Origin: Phoronis australis
Taxonomy: Eukaryota > Animalia > Phoronida
Assembly (NCBI GenBank): GCA_002633005.1
Contig: NMRA01000639.1
Location: 139,609-203,608 of the forward strand
Direction: 5' to 3'
Length of the DNA: 64,000 bases
Shown: piece after piece, positions 2,061 through 61,800 of the stretch
Position numbering within the stretch: the first letter of the stretch is position 1
Layout: each line of letters opens with the position of its first letter
Made by a program: the position numbers and the translations under genes
The notes under the pieces: model-generated
Databases searched by the model: none
Told to the model about the DNA's origin: nothing
The model's input: the letters and a program-made list of their open reading frames with translations, nothing else

Positions 2061-11119
<9,059 letters not shown>

Positions 11120-28100: not shown

Positions 28101-30500
28101 ATTAGTTCAATATAAGTTTCCATTTAACTTAGTCTCTACTAAAGACTAACATTTAAATATTACGATAACGAGCAAACCCGATTAATCGACTTTCAGTTGG
28201 AAGTATCGTGCCACGTCGCTGCTACTAACGTGACTACGCGTCTATTGCAAACCCACAGATTAATGACATGAAGAGAAATTATCAAAGAAAAATCGATGCT
28301 TAGACAGTTTTATACTTCACTGCGACCCTATGTCGGAGAGTTGTTGCTATATATTGGTCATAGTTTTCTCACGTGGGTAACTGTTACAGGATTATGTAAA
28401 AATTTCAAACCATTTTCTCTCGTAGAAATAGACGTCTCAAGTTCTGGTGTGACTGGACACATATTTTGATGTCAACTGCAATAGATTTATAATTACATAT
28501 TTTGTATCAGGATAACCATATTTGTTTTTTTCTAAACGGAAACCTAGGGACATGCCTGAGTTCGGTGTTCAGTGGGTTGTGGGCAATGACTAATTCGTGT
28601 AATTTGACTCGTGTATGCGATCTCTGCCTAGACTTTTGCGGCCTAACTTTAAGGAAAGGCTTTCAATCTTAAAGACAACTATTGGCGATATCGCAGCGAC
28701 ATCGCAGCGATATTATTCATGTCTTTAACCCATTAAACACGTTAACTCTGGATCAGCACGCCAATCTCAAGTAAGGCAGAGCCGAGGATTCCTGATATGC
28801 CCTATGAAGCATTTGTAAGACTACTATAAAAGTTATCGGTTGAAATAATCGAAAAAATACTAATCAGCTGTCACCTGGAAAACGTAAAATAATAGCCACT
28901 AATTTGGCGTTTCTGGTTCAATAATTCATGAAATAAAAACCCAACGTCATCGACGTCATTAAATAGAAGGCAGAAATTCTATCCTGCGTTGATCCTGATA
29001 ACTGCAAATCTCTCTAAGTGCAAACTCTCACAACAAACAAACAGCCACGAGAAATAGTGGCTTGATATCACCTACAGCACCGAATACATTCATGCTAAGT
29101 TGTCCTCACTTCGTAACTCAAATGCCTGACTGGACAGACATTACGGACTACGTATATAGGGTGCTGGTATGCCGTATTGAAGTGCTGCGAAAACAACTTT
29201 CCGTTGTTACCCCCTTACGTCACCATAAATCCATCAGTGCTGTGAACACTGCGACCAGTGGTCAGTTGTTCACGTGTGTTGCGTTTTGCACTGCGAGTTT
29301 GTTGCGAAAATGGCGAGATCGCTCAAATCTTCGCGATATCTTTGCACGCATTATAAGTCTACGAGATCCCACTAGCTATTTTCGCGCTTGTGTCGCATAT
29401 ACGAGGTGCATCCTTAATTTATTGTGATCCATGCTGTGGATTAGATGCCTGTTCATCCGGTGTTGTGAACCGGGAATGCGACTCCGCTCAGTTGATCAAG
29501 TTATTTTTGGTCCCGTCGCTGGGCATGGATTGTTTGTACACTCTATCACAGTGCTAAATGCAGTATAGGTGGCGCTGTGTCAGAGGGTAGGATTGTTGTT
29601 CCTCCTTGTTGTTGTAACTGTAACAACAATCGCCTCGACACATTCAGTATATTTTATTTCAAAAACAACACTTTGATCTTAACTTGCAAAGTTGCGTGTA
29701 ACAATTATTAAAACTCCTATCTGGGAAGTTGAAATATTTTAACAAAAATTTTGTAAAGTGTGCGAATGGGACTTCTACGCTTTTCAAAACTGAGGCTTTG
29801 AATTTCTTCTGTTCCTATTATTTTTATTCATTTTTGCAAATCTATACATGCTGCCGCGAGTCTCATTAAAGTGGTGCTACAATAACAGAACCATTTCCTT
29901 TTGTTTTCAGAACACCAGTCTACAAAGGTAACGGACGAACCCACGATGCTGAAGCATGTCTCCGTAGTGTCGCATAAACGGAAGTTGGACTTCGAGGAGT
30001 TGCGCATTCCTGACGAGCCACCGCGTAAAATTTCAATGCGCGATAATACTCCGAAACAACGTCGTGACGAAAAGAAACGCATCTTGAGAATGTCGGTGCA
30101 AAAACTGAAACGAATGGACGATCCGGAAGTAGCTTTACACCGTGCTGTGCTTATAAACAATACTGTGAAGAGAATGCAGAGAGAGATCAAAGAAGAGAAA
30201 AGGAAACAGCTGTATGGAGAAAGTGTAGAAAATACCACATTTCCTCGGCGAATCACGCGTGATTGTCAATTCGACAGAGACCTATTGTTTGATAGCCAAA
30301 ACACACCAACCTTACCTTTACATAGTCCCTGGCTAGAGTACAGCGACTACCGCCAGTACGCCGAGCGCCTTGCCGATGATGGATACTCTCTGCCCATTTT
30401 CCCAGGACTTCTCGTTGACACGGAGAAAAGTGACTCTTATAAGTCTCATTCTATAGACTGCACGTTAAATACATTAATAAGTGCATTTTCAGATTCCTAA
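22195..30500 (+). CDS. SERTAD4: SERTA domain-containing protein, SERTAD4-like, 310 aa; join(22195..22537,29911..30500)
   Basis: SERTA core EKKRILRMSVQKLKRMDDPEVALHRAVLINNTVKRMQREI resembles vertebrate SERTAD4 ([36 protein letters not shown]). Phase-1 donor G|GTAAG at 22537 matches the phase-1 acceptor ttttcag at 29910. AATAAA at 30845-30850. Confidence 0.82.
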
Positions 30501-33500
30501 CTTAAAATGGACCTATTTATTTAATAACCCTTTACTTCACGAGATCACGTGATTTCAGGATAGTCCTGCAAATAAGACTTCCATCCAGCTCATGTCTGAC
30601 AATTCACTCGTGGAAGACTATTTGAAGCCGTTTGAATAACGCATCAAATATAATCTCCAGGTTCGGTGTAATGCAATTTTTTGTAGACCCTTGAGCTCCA
30701 AATATCCTCGTGTTGGGCATTGATGTGTGTGTCTATGACACCTCTCGTGGCCGATTCTGGGGACCATCTCACAAAGGGGCGCTGAAGTCATGCATATTTC
30801 ACGAGATCATAATTATTTTGTTGATAATCATAAATTGTGTATTTAATAAATTATGTTTTGGTATGCACTGACTTTAAACACCAGCAACTGCGCACAGGAT
30901 GTTCCATTTAGGAGAATTGAAATGTACGCATGCAGCGGCATTTCGGGGTCAAATTTAAACTAAAATAGAACGACTGCTGGGGAGTAAAGCGATCGTAAAA
31001 ATATCATCTCGTTTCCGTTTTAGGCGACCAGATATTCCAAGAAAATCACAAAATTCACATTCTTTAATAGCCCCTCGTGCAAAAGGGGAACATTTTGAAA
31101 ATAATTCCCGACAGCATTTTGGAGAACAGTGCACACATCATACAGTAGTATATGAAAGTTTCCTATGAATCGGATCCGAAGTTAACCAAATTTGGCTATT
31201 TTTCTAAAGTCTTACATACCTTTAAACTCCATTTGTCCCCTAAAGCCATCAAGACATAAAATCTAGTCCCACAAACGTGCTGAAACAGCGCAAGATTACG
31301 TACACCGCTCACAGATGTGAATATCGGGTTATACAGAGTTCAGGTGAAAAGGATGCTGCAAGGGACTTATACAATATCCGAGGGTTGCTTGGGCAAACGT
31401 TAGACAAGGCTAGGTAGTAAAAAAAAACGTCAGTTACCGATATTTCACCCCACCGTCCACCATCAAATTTTCCGGAGTACCCCCGAAAAACAAAAATCAG
31501 TAAGGAACAGGAAACGTTTTAAATATAACATTTTGTGACAGGACTCATTCGAACGCTTTTAAAACAAATTGAAGGAAAAATTTACATTTCTATTATGTAA
31601 ACGCGTAACATTCTTTTCGTGGTTTAAACTTTGGAAGAACATTTGAGTAGAAATTGGAAAGGTCCAAAATAAATTCGATTTATTCATCGAAAAAGATAGT
31701 TTGGGAAAATGAAATCATTACGTCAAAACTCTTTACAAGGTAAATCTAATGATTTACTTTTACCTAGCTAATCTGTGCAATGAACAATTAACTCACTCAG
31801 CACGAGTGCTAGCGAGAACAATGGCTCCGCGATCTACGCTGATGACATTGATTACGTCTGGCGATGTTTAGTGACAAAGTTAATGTCTTTATTCTCGACC
31901 TGATGAATTATTCAGTAACAAATGAAGAGACGCCATTGTCTAGTCGCATCGGCTGCGGCCTGGTGCAGGCGCGTGCACGTCTTCAAGAGACAAAAGTCAC
32001 AGTTTGCCGACGTGAAAAAATACACCTGTAGCAAAAACTCGCCGGTGACGAGATAAGTGACGTGCGTGTACAGACACTAGTGATTATTACAACAATCTAT
32101 TTACATTAGTTGTACATCAGTTAATTTTTCTTGATGTGAAGCAGGGACACAAAACTGAGACACGATTAGGCAAAAAGCATTAGATTGTTGCGTCTGGTCT
32201 CTACACCGACCCATTTGAGACTCACCGCACCATGATTTCAGCCAAGATCTCATTTTTTTTTCTGAAAAACTGCACAAAGGCACGTAAGCAAGGTTTGAAA
32301 CGACGCGTTTTGCAACGCAAAAAAGTAAAAGATCTTACATAGTTTTTGCACATTTCAGATGGATTTTCGTTTTTGAGAAAGTGAATAGTGCACAGCCGAA
32401 TGGATTTTCAAAAAACACCGAATCAATTATGCTTTTTTGTCCTTAAAAGTTGTGGTCCAAGTCACACAGCGAGGCACTGCGAAAGCCTCAAGCAGATATC
32501 TTCAGTTACTTTTGAACGTCTGTATGCTCCCTGGTAGCAGAAATTACACGGATTTGTCATTTGCATCGACTTCTGCGTCCGCAAACAGGCGAGGCCAGAA
32601 TCCCCGGGCACTATAGTGCACAACGCTAAGCCAGTGAGTCACAAAATGTAATAAACAAATCAGTCAATCGAAGGTTTTTGAAAATCTACACATTTTCAAG
32701 AATGAGTGATTCCAGATATATGTAGGACACAAAAAGTAACCGAAATCGGTGTTCGAATCATAAAATTGGTACACTATATAACTGAGTTTACCCACATCAA
32801 AATTAAATCGACTTCAGCTACTTGACTGATAAGGAAAATAGTCCGCGCTCCATTATCTTCACCCGATTAAACGTGTGCTATAAGCAACACAAAAGATATG
32901 GAAATGAGCTATCTGGACTCGCTGAATAATGAGTCCATCCAAGCGGGTATATAATTCAATACAAAATTGCAAACCATTCTTCGAAATTTTCCGGTACGAA
33001 CGAGGCTAGGACTTAGCAGACATACCAAATACGGGCATTCGCATGTCAAATACGCGATTCGCACGGAAAATTTAAGTGGCTTGTCAAACAGTTAGGGAGT
33101 GGGCGGTTACGAAAGCGGAGGTTAGAATACGCCACCAGAGTGGAAAGAGGGTATTGACACGAGAAGCAAATTAGACGATTTTACAGCAAAAATTGTCTAC
33201 CAGGGGAAAAATGGGTATCGATTTACTTCGTTTTCGTACCTCTACACGTCACATAAGAATAGAAAGATTCCGATTTTCCATCTAAAGCTTACTCTACCTG
33301 TGAGAATGTACATTGTCAAACTGAGAGCACCAAGACAGGTTAAGATTTTGTTGGGCACCAAGAGACGGCTGGAATACTACAGGGTTAGACAGCATTCCAG
33401 ATTTGTAGAGTCTTGTGACCATTCGGGGAGAGGAAAGTTCCAGAAATTTCACAAACTGAACATAACTTTGTCATGAGATTACGTAAGGAAATCACGGAGT

Positions 33501-34045
33501 GGTGAATGTTCGCAATTTTGGATCTGACAGTAGAATCATTTTGAACCTCAGGGTATGTGACCAAAAGGTGAATACGGCTTGATGGAGTGAGGGTCATTGA
33601 AATGAAGATCTTTCTGTATTGCATTCTGTTTAATTACCCCTCAGTTTTCAACTATGTAATATTTAATTGAAGCAACACTTATCTTCAGTAATTCTAATGA
33701 AAATTGATACAAGATAAATTCTCACAAGTCATTTAAATATTGCTTCAATAGACATTCATAAAGAGGTCCTCCTATGAATCTTAAATAATTCAAGCTGGTC
33801 TCCAGGAGGGACTAAAACATTCACTCAATAAACAATTGAAGTACTGAAAAGACTTAATCAAGCGCAAACCTTGTCTAATGTGAATGATGATGGTAATGTC
33901 GATGATGTTAGTGATTAAAGGTTACAGACTAGGTGGTATTCCACAAAGAAAATTGCAACACTGCATTTTCCGTATTTTAAACTTTCCAATCCATTCATTA
34001 ATTTAAAACAATTATTTAGATTTTTAGTAAAACCATTGACTAAGG

Positions 34046-35332
34046 TCAAATAGTTGACTTCTCATCACTGTCATCAAAGTTCATGTGACTTTTTAACCTC
34101 ATTTTAATGGAAGACGGCAAACACAAAGAGTCAGCGCCATCTGATGAGCCAAGGAGACATGAAATGCGATGTACACAGCTATCTTGTAAAGAGTGTACTT
34201 TAAGTGGATGGGTCATTTCCATGTCAATGACCTCCCTATAAAACATTGCTCTCCATTCTCTGTAGTTAAGATACAGGGCATCGATGGACTTGGGTGAGAA
34301 TACAAACGAGGGTTGGGGTGTGCGTGTACCAGTACAGTTCCACATGTTCACGTAAGGATGGTTCAGAGCTTCTTCCACACTATATCGTTCACTGGCGTCA
34401 AGAACAAGCAAGCGCGACAGTAAATCCATTCCGCTATCTTCATTCCACGCGTCTGGATAATTGATGTCAGGAGATGGAAAGCAGTCCTCTGGAAAATTAT
34501 CCTTGAGCACTCCGAATTCGTCATCATCAAAAGAATCAAATACTTCCTTGAACTTCAGTGTTCGACTAAACTTTTTCACGAATGTCTCACCAGGCTTTTC
34601 GCAGATATCAAGCATTTGAGCAAACAGTACTGTTTGGTCTGTATTAATTGAGAATAAATTTGTTCTCAAGAGAAGCTCGCCAAAAAGACAGCCAACAGTC
34701 CAACTGTCAGTTTTGGGATCAAAACAGTAATTACTAAGCAGACACTCGGGAGAATTGTAGGCCGATACTTGTGGTATCAGAGGGTTGGCTATCAGTTTGA
34801 GGGAGACATCGTTGTCATAGCTCTGTACAAAATCCATCAGCACATTCCCACTGTTGAGCGTTCTTAGCACAATGCCATTGGCATGCAAGAATGACAATGC
34901 TGTCAGAATTTGATGCACAATTTGCGACAGCATACGGTGGGACGAAGCCATGTGCATACTGATGGAGATATACTGCAGGCAGCTGTCCATAGACTCGCAG
35001 ATCAAATAAAAGCTGGCAAACTGTGTAAAGCTCTCCTCAACTGTGTAACAATAGAGAAGACGTGCGATATTTGGATGGTTCAAATGTTTACGCAACTGCA
35101 TAAGTTTCCATGTCTGTTTCAACCAACGCACATCCTTAGCAATGGTGTATCGGTGGATAGCGACCTTCCGTCCACTCGTGGTGTCTATGGCGGACACGCC
35201 CACAACGCCATAGTCCAGACTGATAACATGCAGCTTCTTGTATCGCAACGGCACAGAAAAGGGGATACGCCTATCTACGCTAGAGCTGTACCCAGTCAGG
35301 AAGGTCGTATACAAAGTACCACTCTTCTCCAT
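34046..35332 (-). CDS. Intronless JNK (MAPK8/9/10 family)-derived pseudokinase, 428 aa
   Basis: JNK-type segments FSVPLRYKKL, HLNHPNI, FYLICESMD, FP..CFP, DLLSRLLVLDASERYSVEEALNHPYVNMW and EWRAMFYREVID. Catalytic motifs are lost (VAIK to VAIH, HRD to LRT, no DFG, no TPY). First ATG is at 35332, 4 nt after an acceptor-like ttttccag. The track start at 35350 is a TTG in the polypyrimidine tract. Confidence 0.85.
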   Translation of the reverse strand: MEKSGTLYTTFLTGYSSSVDRRIPFSVPLRYKKLHVISLDYGVVGVSAIDTTSGRKVAIHRYTIAKDVRWLKQTWKLMQLRKHLNHPNIARLLYCYTVEESFTQFASFYLICESMDSCLQYISISMHMASSHRMLSQIVHQILTALSFLHANGIVLRTLNSGNVLMDFVQSYDNDVSLKLIANPLIPQVSAYNSPECLLSNYCFDPKTDSWTVGCLFGELLLRTNLFSINTDQTVLFAQMLDICEKPGETFVKKFSRTLKFKEVFDSFDDDEFGVLKDNFPEDCFPSPDINYPDAWNEDSGMDLLSRLLVLDASERYSVEEALNHPYVNMWNCTGTRTPQPSFVFSPKSIDALYLNYREWRAMFYREVIDMEMTHPLKVHSLQDSCVHRISCLLGSSDGADSLCLPSSIKMRLKSHMNFDDSDEKSTI

Positions 35333-35902
35333 TTTTCTGGAAAATTTCAAAATGTAGGATTATGAAAAGGGCAAGTAGCCCCACTTTGACAATAGGTGGC
35401 GGGCCATGCAGGTCATGAATAACCTTTGGTAAATCAATAAATACGATACCAATTAGTTGAACCATCACCAATAAAATTTGTGCGTTTTCTTAGTACTAGA
35501 ATATTAGCTTATCTTTTTATAGCTATTGTGAAATTCATACAGTAAAATTAGAACTGCATGTAGTAATTGATATGTGTGTCCTTTATATAAACTGTTCGAT
35601 CTTTTATTACCAAATAAAAACTCTGTAAAAGGTATAATAATATTTCTCAACCATTCGTGTTTTAACAAACTATGGTAACTCTCCACTTAACTAACATTAT
35701 CATCTTTCTATTTTTCAAAAGCTGATTACTATACTTCAAATTAAGAAAAAATTATCAAACGTTGTTTTACTCAATACAAACTATACTAGCAATAGTCAGA
35801 CTAAAATCTTCTTACTTCTTGTTTTTATGGAGACATTTGACAAAACAGAATTTCACTTGTTGGCCATTTTATATGCTAAACAAAATAAAAAATGTAATGT
35901 AC

Positions 35903-37429
35903 CTTGACTATTTCTTGGGATTTTGATCAGCGCTCCAAACTAATTGATCGAACTTCTTTACGTGATCATATCCAGTCCTGTTAGCCAACCAGTAATACCC
36001 TGAAACATTAAAATAACTGTTTTTATTTTTATTTCAGCAATTCGCAATAGCTTTGTGACTTAATTATAGCTGACAATGTTGTGTATTTAAGACCAGCCTC
36101 ATGATGGATTCGAATTTTCGACCTCGGCGGACTATCGTAGTCTTGTCATTTTGTTGGTAGCGCCGAAAGCCAATGCGTCAAGTATCTGAACATTTAACAG
36201 ATAAAGTCATCACTTCAGTTTCAGTTAAATACACCAAATGACTGCAAGCCGGTATCGGGAATCCGCGATTTCTAATAACAACACAAAAACAGAATTTTGC
36301 TGTTTTACAGCTCTGGTCAAATCGAAGTCTATAGAACCAAACAATAATAAAATCTCAAAAAACATTTTTCATCCCAAAACCACAAGTGTCCCTTAAGTTA
36401 TCATGATCTTATAAAAATTTGTTGAAAGTGAAATAAGAAATTTAACAAATGAATTGAAAACTCACGCCGACAAGCATTCAACCATAACTTTTTATTCATT
36501 ATAAACAGGGCTCGATTTGGTGACCCGCAAGTCGCCAATGCGACCTCACACCTCAGATTTTGTTTGGCATCCTAGTAAAAATCCCAGGTGGCTAAGAAGC
36601 CATCGTGCTACATCTGAGCATGTATTCTAAATACTAAAGGAAGTGAACAGATGGAAATCGGAATCGTTCGGAAAAAATGTGAGGACCCGATCGCTTCGGA
36701 ATCCTCAGGTTGCAAGAGGCGAGCCTGTGCATGGAACATTGTGCCTGAGAGGAAGACATAGGTCGTTAACGAGCATACAAGACACTCTGAATATTCCATT
36801 TAAGTAAAAACAAAAAAAAAAACGCCAGATGATTTTGGGTACACCGGCGACATCTGCTGAGTTCACCAGTTCACTACTTTATCGTGTCAGTAACAATCAC
36901 CAAGCTAATTCAGTCAGTATAAACTGTAAAGAGCCTGTAAAGGAACATTAAAGAGTCATTGGCCATTCAGGACCAGCACGCTTCTGGTGCTCTGAATAAC
37001 ATGCAGAGCTCAGTGACCCTACAGCTATGGTGACGACCTATTTACTATTTCCTGTCATTGTTGCTACACTCATTTCACTTCATGGATGTAACTTGACTCG
37101 TATGTCGACACTTGATGTCTTATTGCTTATAACCTGATGATGTCTAATGAATACACGGAATGTCGAATCAATATGAACTTTTTCATTTGTGTTGCGATTG
37201 TCTGTTTTTTGATCCTATTATGGCCAAAAACTGATGTCATAAACAACTTATTTATTTCGTTTTCAGCTCCTGCCACCGAGATTTGGCGACCTCAGTTTTG
37301 GTTTGGCGACCTGGGAATTTTAACAGGTTGCATTTGGTGAGATGACATTAAGATAAGCGCTAAGCCCAGATAAAGCATTTTTACCTTCTAAAACTTTTGG
37401 ATGGTGGTGATGAAGGTATTTTCTGTGTT
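35903..37429 (-). other. Candidate upstream exons of the pseudokinase transcript: 37429-37385 and 35999-35903
   Basis: Each has a T-rich tract plus AG acceptor and an AAG|GTA donor. The phases join into one frame. No transcript evidence. Confidence 0.35.
36506..37369. mobile_element. Degenerate hAT-like MITE
   Basis: Ends cagggct... and ...agcccag (imperfect TIR), with subterminal gcgacc/gtcgcc motifs repeated near both ends. The TSD is not clean. Confidence 0.4.
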
Positions 37430-39369
37430 CTATAATAAAATAAAATAAAATAAAAATACCTCATAAACAAATCATCACAAGCAATAAAATTATCATGCTC
37501 AATATGTACATCAGTAAGGAAACAACAAAGAGATATAAATGCAAAAATAACATAATTAAATGAAACTGAATACATGGGTCATTTCCATGAGAACTCAACA
37601 AGAGGGTGTACATACACCCAAACAAAACAACGAGGGTGTGCATCTTCACTTAGGGTGAAAGTGTTTTTGATAGTTCACCTTGGGTTATTAAGAACACATC
37701 AAAAATTAGTTATCAGTTCTTCACTAGTTTGAAATATTGGCATGTAAAAATGGAGGGTCGTGCCTTTCCCTCCATGAATGTGATGGTAATTTTTGATTTT
37801 GACAATTTCACGTCTTCAATATTACTTAAAGCTGCATTCCCCTCATTTAGTTGAGATAAAATCAATCCCATAATATTCCATTATGATACAATTCCATTTA
37901 CGTTACCAGTAAGAACTTCTAGAGCGTCAATAAAGCAACCCGAGAAACCATAATGACTCAAGAAAATGCTTCATGGTTCGTTGGCCGACCCTGAATCGAA
38001 AATGGTGCATTTCCTAGGATCACATTGGCAACAGAAATGGAATCCTATCACGGTGAGGGATTATACGAGATAGATTGTATGGGAGTACAAGACCTGGTTC
38101 CATTTTTGTTTTTTAGCCAGCTAAATGGGACAAAATGCACCATTAATTCATCACACTAAAACTTTTAATATTAGGTAAGTGGATATTATTTTTTTCAATT
38201 GCGACATCAGAATCATCTTATCTCACAGCATGTACAAATACAGTGACTTCAAGATTATTTAATCACCAGATATATAACTTCCTTTTCTGTATGTTACACT
38301 GTGAGCTACATGAAGCATGGCTCCAAAAAGAGCTTCTACTGGGCAAAACAGGCTATGAGTGGGCAATTATCAAACCAACGTGATTTTATTCACACATTTG
38401 TGCATGTCTTACAAGGACAAAGTAAAATCTAGTTGTTTTGGATCTGCTTCAAAGAAAAGTTTAACTTTCATTATAAGGCAATTTGCCAAAAACATGATTT
38501 GTGCAGTTACATTGTGTTATTGTTTCTACTAACGCTATGTACTGCCACTTGATTCATGCCCGATGACAACAAATACCTTTCATTCTGTTGCATTTCAAGT
38601 CTATATCATAGCTGTATCAAGGATAGTTCTTCAACTCTTAGGAGCGCCACCTATTGGCTGAAGCCTAAACCTGCACAACTGCACCATTAGGGTATGATTC
38701 AACAGGATACTAGGACTTTCTTTTAAATACTTTGCATTAATGAGGCTAGTCTGGTCAATGCTTGCCAGGCTCTTTTGAAGTACATTTGACTTTCGCTAGT
38801 TGGAACTGGCTGCGGACAACAGGTGGCACTGATAAACATTAGTCAGTGACCAAATGTTGTCAATGGAAGTCGTCATAATCTTAGCAAAACACTGAAACAG
38901 CTGGTGACGAACAACGTCAAGTCAGTGCAAAAATTATGTTCTTTTGCCAACTGTATAATTTCTGAAGCTGAACTTTAGAAGCAAGCAGGTCCAAAAACAA
39001 ACAGATTTTTTAGTAGATTCTAATAAGGCATAAAAATGTGTGGACCTTATCTCAAAAAGTCTGACATGCTTTTCACTAAAAGTCATTTTCGCAGCTCTGT
39101 GATCCCAGCAGATTTTTTTTGAAGGCCTGGCTGAATTAGCTTCAAATCTGGCATCCACAGAATTGAAATGCACTATCTGAGTAATGTTGATCATAAAACC
39201 TCATAGTGAGGAACTACTTGACACATGTTCATACTATATATCCAGTATGAGCTTGAAAAAAATTAAACCAAATCTACGATGGCCACCCGAATTTTTTTCA
39301 ATTATGGTTGATTTCACATGGAATGATCCATATCAACATTTTTATCTACAATGACCTTATCAGGTTCAC

Positions 39370-39490
39370 GAGGAGGCAGTGTGGCCTGGTTGATCAGTGC
39401 CCGCTTTCTTTACTCGAGGTCGTGAGTTCAGTTCCCACCAGTTCACACTGCTAAACCCTTGAGCCAGGTTTCTAGCTCCTCAGCTCGGTT
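39370..39490 (+). mobile_element. tRNA-derived SINE head, copy with degraded B box
   Basis: Counterpart of 41227-41350 within the duplication. The B box reads gagttcagttcc. Confidence 0.55.
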
Positions 39491-41226
39491 TTAACCACAT
39501 ATTAATAAAGCATAAAAATATTTCCAGGTGATCAGTGCAATGGGCCCACATGCGAGGCCTGCGCATGTACCAGACCGCCTGCAATTATTTTTTTTATCAC
39601 ATTCACGGAAAGATAGCATTTGTTGACCTACCTTGTGACCTGTTGATCTTTCGCCAATAGAGATAGCCAAAGCCTGCAGCAGCAAGTTCTATAAGAAACA
39701 ATCCTTTCAACAAGTCACCACCGAGTGTTGATTTTTTGGGAAACTTTTGCAGCATTGTCCATCAGCGCTGTAACGATATTTAAATGAAAGTTCTCTGACA
39801 GAGCGACACTTGACAAATTTGACTGAACAAAGGAGTATAAGTGATCACAATGGAAGCGTCTCCTAAGACGACAACACTCATTTCACCNCAGAAATGGAAT
39901 CCTATCACGGTGAGGGATTATACGAGATAGATTGTATGGGAGTACAAGACCTGGTTCCATTTTTGTTTTTTAGCCAGCTAAATGGGACAAAATGCACCAT
40001 TAATTCATCACACTAAAACTTTTAATATTAGGTAAGTGGATATTATTTTTTTCAATTGCGACATCAGAATCATCTTATCTCACAGCATGTACAAATACAG
40101 TGACTTCAAGATTATTTAATCACCAGATATATAACTTCCTTTTCTGTATGTTACACTGTGAGCTACATGAAGCATGGCTCCAAAAAGAGCTTCTACTGGG
40201 CAAAACAGGCTATGAGTGGGCAATTATCAAACCAACGTGATTTTATTCACACATTTGTGCATGTCTTACAAGGACAAAGTAAAATCTAGTTGTTTTGGAT
40301 CTGCTTCAAAGAAAAGTTTAACTTTCATTATAAGGCAATTTGCCAAAAACATGATTTGTGCAGTTACATTGTGTTATTGTTTCTACTAACGCTATGTACT
40401 GCCACTTGATGCATGCCTGATGACAATAAATACCTTTCAATCTGTTGCATTTCAAGTCTATATCATAGCTGTATCAGGATAGTACTTCAACTCTTAGGAG
40501 CGCCACCTATTGGCTGAAGACTAAACCTGCACAACTGCACCATTAGGGTATGATTCAAGAGGATACTAGGACTTTCTTTGAAATACTTTGCACTACTGAG
40601 GCTAGTCTGGTCAATGCTTGTCAGGCTCTTTTGAAGTGCATTTGACTTTCGCTGGTTGGAACTGGCTGAGGACAACAGGTGGCACTGATAAACATTAGTC
40701 AATGATCAGGTGTTGCTAATGGAAGTCATCATAATCTTGGCAAAACACTGAAACAGCTGGTGACGAACAACGTCAAGTCAGTGCAAAAATTATGTTATTT
40801 TTTGCCAACTGTAGAATTTCTGAAGCTAAACTTTAGAAGCAATCGGGTCCAAAAACAAACTGATTTTTTAGTAGATTCTAATAAGGCATAAAAATGTGTG
40901 GACGTTATCTCAAAAAGTCATGCTTTTCACTAAAAGTCATTTTCGCAGCTCTGTGATCCCAGCAGATTTTTTTTTGAAGCCCTGAATTAGCATCAAATCT
41001 GGCATCAACAGAATTGAAATGCACTATCTGAGTAATGTTGATCTTAAAACCTCATAGTGAGGAACTACTTGACACATGTTCATACTATATGTCAAGTATG
41101 AGCTTAAAAAAAAAATTAAACCAAATCTAAGATGGCCACCCAAAATTTCTTTCAATTATTATGGTTAATTTCAAATGAAAGGATCCACATCAACATTTTT
41201 TTCTACAATGACCTTATCACATTCAC

Positions 41227-41350
41227 GAGGAGGCAGTGTGGCCCGGTTGATAAGTGCCCGCTTTCTTTACTCGAGGTCGTGGGTTCGAGTCCCACCAGGT
41301 CACACTGCTAAACCCTTGAGCCAGGTTTCTAGCTCCTAAGCTCGGTTTTA
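41227..41350 (+). mobile_element. tRNA-derived SINE head
   Basis: A-box-like tggcccggttga and B box ggttcgagtcc at tRNA spacing, followed by a cccttgagccagg core-like segment. No paired acceptor stem. Confidence 0.65.
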
Positions 41351-42038
41351 ACCATATATCAATAAAGCATAAAAATATTTCCAGGTGATCAGTGCAATGG
41401 GCCCACATGCGAGGCCTGCGCATGTCTGGTACAACGTGTATCAGACCCCCTGCAATTATTTTTTTATCATGTTCACGGAAAGATAGCATTTGTTGACCTA
41501 CCTTGTGACCTGTTGATCTTTCGCCAATAGAGATAGCCAAAGCCTGCAGCAGCAAGTTCTATAAGAAACAATCCTTTCAACAAGTCACCACCGAGTGTTG
41601 ATTTCTTGGGAAACTTTTGCAGCATTGTCCATCAGCGCTGTAACGATGTTTAAATGAAAGTTCTCTGACAGAGCGACACTTGACGAATTTGACTGAACAA
41701 AGGAGTATAAGTGATCACGAAGGAAGCTTCTACTAAGACAACAACGCTCATGTCACCATTGACGAGGCAGAGCCAGAGGATGACCTCAGAGATCATGACA
41801 TCACCACTGCCACTCAATAAGAGTGACAGTGCTGCAAGAAACACTGACAGCATAATCAATGAAGATGATGACGCTGACTTGAATACTGATGACAATACTG
41901 ATATACCCACAACAATTGATTATTCAAAACATGGCCACCACAGCACCATCTTGTATCTGATTTTGACCAAAAAATAGTCCTCAAGCTTTTCATGAGATAT
42001 AATTTAGTGCAAGTTTCATGTAGATTGAGCGAAAAATG

Positions 42039-55400: not shown

Positions 55401-56442
55401 AAATATTGCTTGGAAATATTAATGGCAGGAAATGATTTAAACTGGGGCTAGCGGTGTTCTTCATATTCTTGGAACCCCAGGGCTTCTTCTGAATGGTAAA
55501 AAAGTTAGAAAAAAAGTACCAGTTGCAAATTAACGACACTTTTTTTTCATACTGTGCCTAGCTGACTGTCTCATAAACTTTTCATGTTCTGCAGAACGAG
55601 CATTTCTCGTGTAGCTGCTGTAGACTTTGTTCAGCACATAATATCCGCTGTTGGAGAAAACAACGAAACATTTCTGTTACGGTTAATTAATCTCCTCGAC
55701 ACATCGGCTTTGTTGAAAAATTTTCTTCAATATCTGATTTGGACCAGTGCACAACTGGATGGGTTTGGTACTAAAGCTCAAGAAATTTTATCATTTGCTA
55801 TAAGAATCAACTGTGGCCATTTGGAGTTGGTAGTGGTACTCTAGTGTTAAGAATATTTTTGATAAAATATTTTTAGGAACTGGTTTTGATACTTGGAAAC
55901 TGTTTGCTAAGACAACTGCGATATATCAAGTTTGGTGTGTATTTCAGGCTGGTTCAATGCATGTGAGAATAAGAAGAGATGCCAATGAACAACTGGTATT
56001 GGCCCACGTCAGCAACCGTTTGGCGAACTTAGTGAACAACTTGACCATTCAAATATTTAAAGATGATTGGTCGCGGGCATCAGCGTATCAAATCATTACC
56101 AACCCATCGTTGACACCACCTAGACTTTCCAGCCCAAATTCAACAGTTCCACCGTCATTGTTCAAAGCGGACTTCAGCAAAATTTCATCGGGTTCATTCT
56201 CTCAGCATGCATCGGAACAAAGTTTTAATTTGTCTAACCTCACCAACAGTTTTGCCCAAGCCAACGGAGGTTTTAACGCAACGGCTAACAACAGTCTAAA
56301 TACCACCAGCCGGTCTGGTTATACTCAAAATGTGGACTACTTACTAGCAAGGACACTTGCTGGTCATTCCTCACTGTCCCATGGTCATTCTCATGACCAC
56401 AGTGATGGTCACTCGCATGGTGACCACGGCCATTCACACTAA
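43463..56442 (+). CDS. SLC30A6: Zinc transporter 6 (ZnT6, CDF family), 502 aa; join(43463..43550,46712..46842,47285..47369,48182..48224,49279..49344,49676..49756,50312..50347,50901..51044,52312..52431,53713..53815,54689..54805,55948..56442)
   Basis: ZnT6-specific stretches GTIHPF, MWCHTTNSMALTAFTYLTIFD, FSFGYERFEVLAVF, SSWLQEHVADMS, LLPRINPF, TMFPMSIYSGKILLQTTPSHVIGQLDK and AGSMHVRIRRDANEQLVLAHV. All introns GT-AG and in phase, 1509 nt in total. Exon 1 is chosen on ATG context, open frame and a phase-1 CAG|GTGAAT donor, so it is less certain. AATAAA at 56632-56637. Confidence 0.94.
45150..45897. other. Assembly gap (748 N) in SLC30A6 intron 1
   Basis: Continuous run of N. Confidence 1.
45898..46458 (-). 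mobile_element. LTR-like fragment abutting the gap
   Basis: Minus strand begins TGTCAG at 46458, followed by repeated ttctagaa/ttctggaa motifs, TATAAATA at 46125-46118 and short internal repeats. The other end is hidden by Ns. Confidence 0.4.
51025..51217 (+). repeat. 38-bp minisatellite x5 spanning the SLC30A6 exon 8 donor
   Basis: gtggctgacatgagtgaaag|gtaacatagggggcagca with minor variants. GT donors at 51045, 51083, 51121, 51159 and 51197. Confidence 0.95.
54776..54895 (+). repeat. 38-bp tandem repeat x3 spanning the SLC30A6 exon 11 donor
   Basis: catttctggac(t/c)ctctccttcaatgttttg|gtaggtca. GT donors at 54806, 54844 and 54882. Confidence 0.95.
54959..55063 (+). repeat. 21-bp minisatellite, about 5 copies
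   Basis: gctcccactgttcatttttgg repeated. Confidence 0.92.
55630..55819 (-). pseudogene. Possible decayed hAT transposase C-terminal dimerisation-domain fragment
   Basis: Minus-strand reading WPQLILIA...VPNPSSCA...RKFFNKAD...RNRNVSLFSP, with stops, loosely follows the P-x-L-x-x-x-A...P-x-S-S-x-x-x-E-R-x-F-S...R-x-x-L pattern. Confidence 0.25.
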
Positions 56443-58896: not shown

Positions 58897-61800
58897 TTAT
58901 GATGGGTTTTTTAGAATACGTTTTTGTCTGAAGTCGTAGACAGATCGACAGAGAAATACTGTCTCGTCATCGACCTCGGCTGGCGGGAGTCGACTTGAGC
59001 GGGGATACGGTGTCTGTGACAGGGGTACTACGCATGGTCTACAAGGCTGGGACTGTTCCAATCTTCTTTGCTCACTCTTGTACCTGTAAGCAGACAGTGA
59101 AGACAATACTATAAATGAAAGATGTCTAAAAGAAAATTTTAAATCTATCGACCATATTGAAAATAAGTTCGATAGCTTCAATGGTTAAAGGTGGAACTAA
59201 AGATGAAAAACATGGCTCATAAAGAATAGATGCAGGCTTATCCCGAGGGGGGTCCACTATAGGGGCCCACAAAACAACTGATGTAGGCTTATCACAAGGG
59301 GGTCCACTAAATGGGCCCACAAAACAACTGATGCAGGCTTATCCCGAGGGCATCCACTATATGGGCTCACAAAACCTTCCAATGCACAAACAGTACAAGT
59401 AATCTGACAAAATACTCTTATCATAACAGCTCGTTCTGGTAATAGCAAAAATGAATGGTAATAAGTATAAAGACTGCAAAATTTTAATTACAGAATGGCT
59501 TAGCCAGCATACTTACTTCCCCTTCATTCTCGGTCATCAGGGGAGACTACTCTGGCAATGAATTTGGTTTCCGCCCAACTCTCATGCTGGGGAATTCCGG
59601 ATGATTTTCACTTGGCTTGTACTGCACACGCACAAAATGACCCGGCACATTACAGGATAAAAGTATTCAGACAAGTGTTTCCTGTCAAGATGGCTAATTC
59701 TGCTCAGAGCAAAATGACGGACGGCTATTACGATGGGGAATGCCACTCGCACACAATGACAGAGAATTCCAGGTTCGATTTTTTAAATTAATTTTGGTGT
59801 GCGCAACACAGACTCTTGTAAAACCAGATGAAATAGTGCAAGACGACTCAGTTACCTGGCAAACTCACAAGGTGTGAGTACATAGGCCTTGTCTTCGATA
59901 CACGCCACGCTCGTCTCGTCCCAGTGTTTGGAAGTGAACAGCTCCTGGTGCACATGGTAAGCTAATCGCCCGGCGTCCGTGTGTTCAGGTCGGTAGTACC
60001 ATAACACGCTCATCATCTTCTCGTCTGCAGGTAGACAACACACCTGAGCTGAGAGGCCAGGATGACAGACAAAGGTTACGTTTACAGCTAAGGACTTTTA
60101 CCACCCTTTTAATCGTGTTTCCTGGCTATTTTACATAGATTCTACAGGACACTAAGATTCATTTTCTGAATGTGATTATTCTTTGTAAATGTTCAATAAA
60201 AACCAGATGAAAGTTTTAATAGTCATTTTCTTCACTACCCTATCAAGTCAAAACACTTTCTTGCTGGTTAAAAGATAACTACGAGAGCAAAAGTATTCCA
60301 CATCACCTGAGTTCGGTGGAGTATGCATCGGCTCATCAGATAGTCCAGGATTATATAAGGCAAGAAAATTCAATTCTTAGCGGGTAACAAAATGACACAT
60401 AGAGTTAAATTTCAAATGGTAAATTGCAGTGACGATTAAAGTAGAAAAAGAGATAACGATTATGACATCTATAAAAATTAATTATTTTACTCAAGGCAGC
60501 TTGTACCAAATTTTAGAACTGGGGAATATTGGCCAGCCCAAGTTCAAGAATTATGATCAACCACAAACATCATTCTCCCCCATGTTACACGCAATGGGCT
60601 TTTTTGACAAATGTTTGAACTACCCAGTTTATTTTCAGACTCTGTTGATCCAAAATGCAGTGTTTGATATTTGAGAAATATGAACACCAAAACCACTCAG
60701 GTCTCAATCTTCAGAAAACAAGTAAATTCAATTCCAGCTTGAATTTCCGTGTCTCAAATTTAGAGACTGCGCAAACTGGAGGAATTTTTACTGTACAAGG
60801 AAGTTATTTTCCATTTTCACACTTACTGTCTTGTGGATTCTCCCAGAGAGCTGCAACCTTTGCAACGTATGGCACATCCGACTTGCGAGGCCCAGAACAG
60901 ATAAGTACGCAGTCTCGCACACTGACGGTATCACCGTTCTTATGTCGCATACAAGGATAGCACCGTCGCTCAACGACTTGTTCGTCTGCCTATAAATGGA
61001 GACAATGTGCTTTTAATGTTTACAAACCAAATACAGTAATGATGTCTTTTCAACTGAGAATTCTACTAAGCTGTACATTATAGTAACTAAAACTTTAAGC
61101 AAATTAAACCAGTCAGTTATGTTGAAATAAACTTGAAAACAGAAGTTCTCTACCGGAAACTTTCATAGTAAATGTCGCCCGATGGGTGATTTATTTAAAG
61201 TGCGAAAGTATCCAACACTGAAAATATATTCTGGAAAGCATTGTAGTTTTTCACCCAATTATTTGCCAAGTGAAACAACCTGCCTCCCCCAATCTAGAAA
61301 TCGAACCTAAGATCTCCCATATACTAGCTCCAGACGTGTTTCCCCAGGGTTTCAAAAGGAACGCGGTGGTGAATCGTTGCAACAGATGCGGAGCGCCGTG
61401 ATATCAAGGTATGATGAGTTTTGAATCATTCTAACGTATTTCAATCACCATTTCAAGTTGCATTAGGAAGCGAACACGCCAGGACAGGACAATTTAATAA
61501 TCCATTCGATGCAGACAACTAGGCCTACTGAAATAACTAGACTGGTCCATGGTTTATCAAACTATTGACTATTTCGTGCAATATAATTCACATTGTTATA
61601 CGACCTCTTTTTATAAACGTGAACACAATAAAATGCCATAAACTGATTATGTTTAACAAGAGGAAAAGTTCAAAATTGGACTTTAATCACTCCTTCCCCG
61701 GTTCAAACCGCATTGATTGAAGGGCAAGATTACAAGTGGCGCGGCCAGAAAGAAGCGTGGCGGGCCACAAAGATATTTGCACCTATGGGAAACGCTACAC

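Follow-up and report, generated by a model that had tools for sequence, protein, structure and literature searches.

Adaptors of ubiquitin ligases that are built on pseudokinases are known from two lineages, NRBP and Tribbles/STK40, the latter comprising CAMK-like pseudokinases. In NRBP1, a BC box comes after a WNK-related pseudokinase domain; the protein brings down Elongin B/C in co-precipitation and has been proposed to be an E3 receptor (PMC3365428, PMC12266122; a BRI2/BRI3 study is cited there); its cullin is disputed, with Cul5 put forward in PMC3365428 and Cul2/Cul4A in PMC12266122. Tribbles proteins bind their substrate through the pseudokinase domain and recruit the COP1 ligase through a C-terminal motif (PMC8141879). 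Receptors such as VHL, FEM1, ZYG11 and PRAME (CRL2) or SOCS4 (CRL5) combine a recognition domain with a C-terminal BC box as well as a cullin box; no dead MAP kinase appears as the recognition domain among the VHL-box and SOCS-box receptors described in the available text of PMC4878042 and PMC4812663. No pseudokinase of the JNK or other MAPK type that carries a BC, VHL or SOCS box emerged from the literature searched (supplementary pseudokinase catalogues could list some); the name JNK is absent from two pseudokinase reviews, and the worm kinome paper, in its available portion, names no such pseudokinase.

The stretch of the Phoronis australis genome analysed here (64,000 nucleotides; hereafter, the window) encodes a protein, P0001, that shares with JNK1/2/3 (MAPK8/9/10) the best sequence and fold matches, an INVW-type motif, the length of the segment before helix H, the beta4-beta5 insert and helix L16, but has no catalytic residues, no TPY, an activation segment shorter by 12 residues, an acid-free CD site, an intron-free coding sequence and an added box at the C-terminus. 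Like NRBP1 and NRBP2, P0001 consists of a pseudokinase domain followed by a BC box; whereas the NRBPs are WNK-related and end in a CCT-like domain, P0001 is related to MAPK/JNK and ends 15 residues after the box, with no further domain. Kinship with NRBP is ruled out by the MAPK-type fold, the L16 tail and the JNK best matches; by analogy, P0001 may work like NRBP1, with a separate origin of the architecture. The arrangement of its parts is that of the VHL-box and SOCS-box receptors, from which it differs in that the recognition domain would be a dead MAP kinase and LP-phi-P is absent; unlike Tribbles and STK40, which recruit COP1 by a short linear motif, P0001 has a box of the Elongin BC type. 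We propose, with a probability of about 0.6, that P0001 derives from JNK and serves an Elongin BC-Cullin RING ubiquitin ligase, probably of the Cul2 type, as its substrate receptor.

Gene structure and transcription

The sequence-only reading had described 428 uninterrupted codons, and the frame indeed comprises 428 codons and a stop (Table 1); no other stop-free frame without N in the window is as long, and an open run of this length has a chance of about 6e-13 per start at the local base composition. The same reading had named lack of expression as one of the observations that would speak against a functional gene. The gene is expressed: reads cover it in each of the three raw RNA runs examined (X6-X8; about 18-19% of every run). 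Over the frame, these reads have a single mate direction, opposite to that over the plus-strand SERTA-motif gene, which is convergent with the pseudokinase gene, lies about 3 kb away and served as a strand control; the depth of the two genes is similar (3-56 per bin for P0001 vs 10-18 for the SERTA gene). That the reads stem from contaminating DNA is ruled out by the single strand together with the empty second intron, inside which RNA depth is zero at 35393-35807. The apparent intronic depth at 35823-35873 is due to a short repeated element located there, with reads on both strands and many contigs. A 150-aa ORF on the opposite strand (34913-35365) was rejected as a gene, there being no reads in that direction over 34065-35392.

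Table 1 Features of the window (coordinates of the window; residues are those of P0001)
Feature	Position	Strand	Remarks
MYND-finger exon	2061-2657	+	Pfam
SERTA-motif gene	29946-30500	+	Pfam E 4.5e-12; transcribed
Exon 3, full coding sequence and 3' UTR	33500..35336	-	3' end approximate, ~33500 to ~33730
Coding sequence of P0001, 428 aa, JNK-like pseudokinase with predicted BC/cullin box	34046..35332	-	
Predicted cullin box, L405-L413	34094..34120	-	Cul2 consensus fit; helix 407-417
BC box, S381-I390, predicted Elongin C-binding helix	34163..34192	-	Consensus match, model helix 382-393
JNK-like fold, residues 24-375, L16 tail included	34208..35263	-	phmmer, AlphaFold2, Foldseek
VNMW motif (328-331), then CD site without its acidic residues	34328..34351	-	
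Acidic patch, residues 265-273, MAPK-insert region	34514..34540	-	Net charge -9 over 255-300
Shortened activation segment, A182-E196, DFG and TPY absent	34745..34789	-	
beta7-beta8 loop, 6-residue insertion, wall of docking groove	34808..34831	-	
Intron 2, GT..AG, 566 nt	35337..35902	-	Acceptor 4 nt before start codon
Exon 2, non-coding	35903..35999	-	In-frame stop upstream of ATG
Intron 1, GT..AG, 5' UTR	36000..37384	-	Loose read ends, GT donor placement
Exon 1, non-coding leader	37385..37595	-	3' edge firm; 5' edge inferred
His-rich exon	55957-56442	+	No Pfam match
BAH-domain exon	59855-60097	-	Pfam E 7.6e-9

The description of the locus as intronless holds for the coding sequence but not for the gene, which has two GT-AG introns in the 5' leader. 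The joint across intron 2 is carried by 12, 5 and 5 reads in X8, X6 and X7, respectively, and by contigs of X4 and X5; the joint to exon 1 is evidenced by loose read ends behind 36001 (17 reads in X8 and 7 in X7) that match 37387-37416 exactly. The 5' edge of exon 1 was taken from an X4 contig that extends 209 nt past 36001, and more exons are possible. One 2144-base X4 contig contains the frame together with the first joint and extends beyond 36001, and the segment 33650-35336 is covered gap-free by one X4 contig; neither joints nor indels inside the coding part are listed for the RNA reads and contigs. Run X4, which had been labelled DNA by guess, is most likely a transcriptome, its main contig carrying the spliced form; were it DNA, a processed copy of the P0001 mRNA would exist elsewhere. 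The start codon is fixed by the in-frame stop in exon 2, which also rules out an N-terminal coding exon.

Canonical JNK genes are multi-exon. Retrogenes lack introns in the coding sequence and have often acquired new exons at the 5' end (PMC5470649), and the combination of an intron-free coding sequence with 5' exons in P0001 fits this pattern. A likely origin of the gene is an old retrocopy of JNK to which 5' exons and the box were added.

Elsewhere in the window, a sequence of about 1.86 kb stands in two near-identical copies just upstream of exon 1 (38032-41757; the pieces found are 93-100% identical); the copies adjoin each other at a single N (39888) and likely represent an uncollapsed haplotype in the assembly. 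The MYND-finger exon resembles what we take to be the first exon of an EGLN/PHD prolyl hydroxylase, an enzyme that acts upstream of VHL; its location 31 kb from the pseudokinase is probably a coincidence. The His-rich exon resembles the end of an SLC30 zinc transporter.

The JNK-like domain and its relatives

Pfam Pkinase matches residues 41-328 of P0001 (E 2.2e-26), and a phmmer search against the PDB sequences gives JNK1/2/3 as the best matches (JNK1 on top, E 7.5e-39 over residues 24-375; JNKs occupy the first 47 rows), with the best p38 at E 5.7e-29. The comparison of an AlphaFold model with JNK1, which had been suggested as a check, agrees: the mean pLDDT is 84.7, the top Foldseek match is JNK1 (TM 0.72/0.87) and the first 26 rows are all JNK structures; the AlphaFold2 model was built on a 67-row alignment and leans on it, such that it speaks for compatibility with the fold and is not proof of it. 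A VIA search with the whole model covered residues 5-372 and listed ERK5 and p38-gamma as the top representatives, without any JNK row. The reported alignment along the whole JNK fold, C-terminal segments included, stands for residues 24-375 but not for the last ~55 residues, which are not JNK-like. The JNK-specific INVW motif is present as VNMW, helix L16 spans residues 357-374 and the segment before helix H is about 10 residues longer than that of p38. The INVW motif and an insert are given as JNK-specific in PMC4370755 (section 8), and we read the long segment before helix H as this insert. From its best matches and its JNK-type segments, P0001 appears to be JNK-derived, with a weak exact placement in the trees.

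The losses that had been read from the sequence were found again in the alignment (JNK residues first): the glycine loop (G33 to S38, G35 to D40), the beta3 Lys (K55 to H60), the alphaC Glu (E73 to L77), HRD (L156-R157-T158 instead, with the catalytic-loop K153 also changed, to N160), DFG (A182-N183-P184 instead), TPY along with 12 residues of the activation segment (15 residues from DFG to APE vs 27) and the acidic residues of the CD site (C333/T336 at the equivalents of D326/E329). The structural motifs are kept, as had also been stated: SPE (194-196), D209/W211/G214/C215 and R316. By the loss of the VAIK Lys, HRD Asp and DFG Asp in its sequence, P0001 is classified as a pseudokinase, a JNK derivative and not an active JNK. 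It is very unlikely that P0001 has kept ATP binding, or gained an unusual activity through a rearranged active site, and that this gates its function: for ULK4, ATP binding has been described in spite of missing canonical motifs (bioRxiv 10.1101/2020.06.18.159293) and R61, R157 and N163 are still present in P0001, but P0001 has lost the glycine loop, the beta3 Lys, the alphaC Glu, both Asp residues and 12 residues of the activation segment.

The claim that selection kept the frame finds weak support, pointing one way, in the pattern of retained columns and in a synonymous bias. Among 49 columns that are at least 85% conserved among 64 kinases, 25 of the 39 structural ones are kept, whereas 8 of the 10 catalytic ones are lost and 2 kept (P 0.015; the catalytic set is a textbook one, applied after the list was seen). 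Of the coding variants, at least seven in number, 4 of 7 are synonymous against 21% expected (P 0.04); two come from raw reads, both synonymous, and five from two low-depth X5 contigs, two of them synonymous. A transcribed but functionless, decaying copy would also be in line with the very long branch of P0001 (3.6 changes per site), with the failure to find a close orthologue and with the 9 upstream ATGs in the assumed leader, translation being only predicted; nevertheless, with a frame that is open at about 27% identity to JNK, no frame-breaking indel listed in the coding sequence, losses concentrated on catalytic columns and the excess of synonymous variants, such decay is highly improbable.

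A distant MAPK pseudokinase, P0016 (432/433 aa with its twin P0152, ENA), 26% identical to P0001 over residues 18-413 of the latter, was found among the best 150 of 8541 matches (E<=0.001) in 1.84 billion representatives; additional members of the family may rank lower than these 150. In P0016, the beta3 Lys is replaced by Tyr, HRD by HRN, and there is no TxY; the alphaC Glu, the DFG Asp and the acidic CD residues are kept. P0152 equals P0016 from its second Met and reads through the stop with Trp, which suggests a prokaryote-type gene caller on one uninterrupted frame and, hence, an intron-free coding sequence in P0016, too.

Trees were built from 35 and 22 rows of about 165 proteins, chosen such that fragments, fusions and most ERK/CDK-like rows were left out. 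The MAPK phylogeny, another proposed check, gave a divided answer: P0001 and P0016 fall on the JNK side (99/99, 35 rows), but AU tests for P0001 do not reject grouping with p38 (p-AU 0.276, compared with 0.387 inside crown JNK and 0.615 with P0016). In the 35-row tree, the two proteins join each other (90/73, with a warning of long branches); in the 22-row trees, each alone stays with JNK (89 for P0001 without P0016, 96 for P0016 without P0001). The 21 diagnostic columns of P0001 comprise 6 with the JNK state, 3 with the p38 state and 12 with others, and the kinase parts of the two proteins share 10 derived states, no excess over the 11 in a control pair. The putative common descent of P0001 and P0016 rests on the in-register tail described below, and the family consists of two distinct sequences.

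Within the limited range of protein lengths covered by the orthologue searches, none of 1630 candidates matches P0001 at E<=1e-20; a three-row profile yielded 10 of 2491 candidates, among which only P0016 is a relative, and a search with the C-terminal region of P0016 retained 1 of 33, P0016 itself. In viral contigs, 29 pattern matches were found and 0 confirmed. The JNK clade contains other divergent members. P0015 from the sea slug Elysia marginata, although named JNK, is without the beta3 Lys, the catalytic-loop Asn, the DFG Asp, TPY and the box; judging from such sequences, JNK-type pseudokinases without the box do exist unrecognised. P0002, P0007, P0009, P0013, P0018, P0020 and P0040, from springtail, rotifer-like and nematode sources, are divergent JNK-clade kinases in which TPY is changed or missing; P0002 has two tandem JNK-like domains.

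The C-terminal tail

Past helix L16, P0001 has about 55 residues that the sequence-only reading overlooked and that carry a candidate BC box, followed by a candidate cullin box. The BC box consensus is (S,T,P)LxxxC/S/Axxx-phi (PMC4878042, PMC3365428), the Cul2 box consensus, phi-P-xx-phi-xxx-phi, lies downstream of the BC box (PMC3365428, PMC4878042), and the Cul5 motif is LP-phi-P (PMC4812663). The P0001 tail agrees with both the BC box and the Cul2 box consensus, and the same succession is found in P0016, at VHL-like spacing in both proteins (381-413 in P0001, 391-422 in P0016). The Cul5 motif LP-phi-P is absent in both tails (LCLP in P0001, LELP in P0016, with the first Pro missing), and Cul2 is therefore favoured.

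In both proteins, the tail comes after helix L16 in the same register, with a single gap, and the P0001 tail alone ranks P0016 and P0152 first of 166 proteins. The motif appears in 93 (P0001) and 198 (P0016) of 200,000 tail shuffles; 164 other kinases (87,795 residues) contain it at one place in total and never within the last 70 residues, the spacer range and the hydrophobic set having been chosen after the tails were seen. In PDB searches, the P0001 tail by itself retrieves the SOCS4 box (E 0.37, 1 of 2 matches), the P0016 tail retrieves VHL in all 24 matches (best E 0.17), and a profile of the two tails has SOCS4 first (E 0.007) and VHL next, with 25 of 28 rows being SOCS4 or VHL aligned on the boxes; the VHL rows are constructs of one protein, so that these PDB matches amount to two distinct box proteins, each match weak singly. 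The assignment to Cul2 is tentative, because the best match of this profile is the Cul5-type SOCS4 while the Cul5 motif is missing. Against Pfam, P0016 matches VHL_C with E 0.0016 and 18.6 bits, below the cut-off of 22.4, and P0001 has no match to SOCS_box or VHL_C at E<=10, a short diverged motif being near the limit of sensitivity. AlphaFold2 places helices in the P0001 tail at 382-393, 400-402 and 407-417 (tail pLDDT 59-71); folded alone, the tail gave a weak model (pLDDT 59) with no Foldseek match and a best VIA Z of 2.1. Taken as a whole, the model predicts a stable MAPK fold with helices at both boxes.

Docking surface and proposed function

According to PMC4370755, the docking groove of MAPKs has four elements: the alphaD-alphaE linker, alphaE, the beta7-beta8 loop and the CD site. 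In P0001, all of them are altered relative to JNK. Besides the changes in the loop and the CD site, the alphaD-alphaE linker has a 3-residue insertion, and E126/R127/Y130 of alphaE are replaced by R133/M134/Q137; the groove residues D116, L119, H132 and W331 are kept. With all four elements changed, classical basic D-motifs should bind P0001 poorly. It is thus doubtful that classical JNK partners are substrates of P0001, and MKK4/7, JIP, Jun and the MKPs, suggested earlier as binding partners, are disfavoured since the groove through which they bind JNK is altered in all four elements. Possibly, the acidic patch is a new binding surface that might replace classical docking. Unlikely, too, is that P0001 is a plain JNK pseudokinase, acting as a decoy or scaffold for MKK4/7, JIP, Jun and MAPK phosphatases, and that the tail motif is due to chance. 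The kept groove residues and the lack of a Pfam match to the tail are what one would expect of such a protein; conversely, the chance of the motif in shuffles is about 5e-4 and it recurs in P0016, and the groove has lost the CD acids, has E126 reversed to R133 and has gained insertions of 3 and 6 residues.

A substrate receptor of an Elongin BC-Cullin RING ligase would act in three steps. Quite probably, helix 382-393 would sit on Elongin C, a protein that is nearly invariant across animals, while L405-L413 would contact the cullin. The dead kinase domain would hold the substrate on the remodelled docking groove or on the acidic insert, and the held substrate would be ubiquitylated and degraded rather than phosphorylated. 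An ancestral partner of the JNK pathway is only a tentative candidate for this substrate, the odds being low because the acidic CD residues are gone. P0016 keeps these acids, so that specificity within the family may differ from that of P0001.

A non-catalytic scaffold or allosteric role had been put forward from the sequence alone. The intact JNK-like pseudokinase agrees with the non-catalytic part of this proposal, which, however, overlooks the BC/cullin box and, with it, the hint at an adaptor of a ubiquitin ligase. A role of a BC box in stabilisation, with no degradation of clients, is possible. Conceivably, then, P0001 binds Elongin BC but is mainly a scaffold or allosteric partner of active kinases, its box setting its own stability or location, as might be argued from the intact fold and L16 tail, and from NRBP1, which activates the WNK pathway even though it carries a BC box and is constitutively bound to Elongin B/C (PMC12266122). 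We consider this rather unlikely, given that, in both P0001 and P0016, the BC box is succeeded by a cullin box, spaced as in VHL, with no domain beyond.

Genes of this kind get missed: an exact look-up in a collection of 15 billion proteins found neither P0001 nor the neighbour protein, and P0016 carries no name. More speculatively, P0001 and P0016 could be the first two representatives of an unannotated animal family, old and fast-evolving, whose founding JNK was retroposed and converted into an E3 receptor, a docking platform feeding stress-pathway proteins to Elongin BC-Cul2; a phosphorylation address code would then have been turned into a degradation code. If P0001 is a substrate receptor, the MAPK docking fold would be reusable as a degradation receptor, no receptor with a MAPK fold having been met in the literature searched. 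The JNK branch of the MAP kinases would then be a third lineage of pseudokinase ubiquitin-ligase adaptors, and the switch from kinase to E3 receptor would be a recurrent one.
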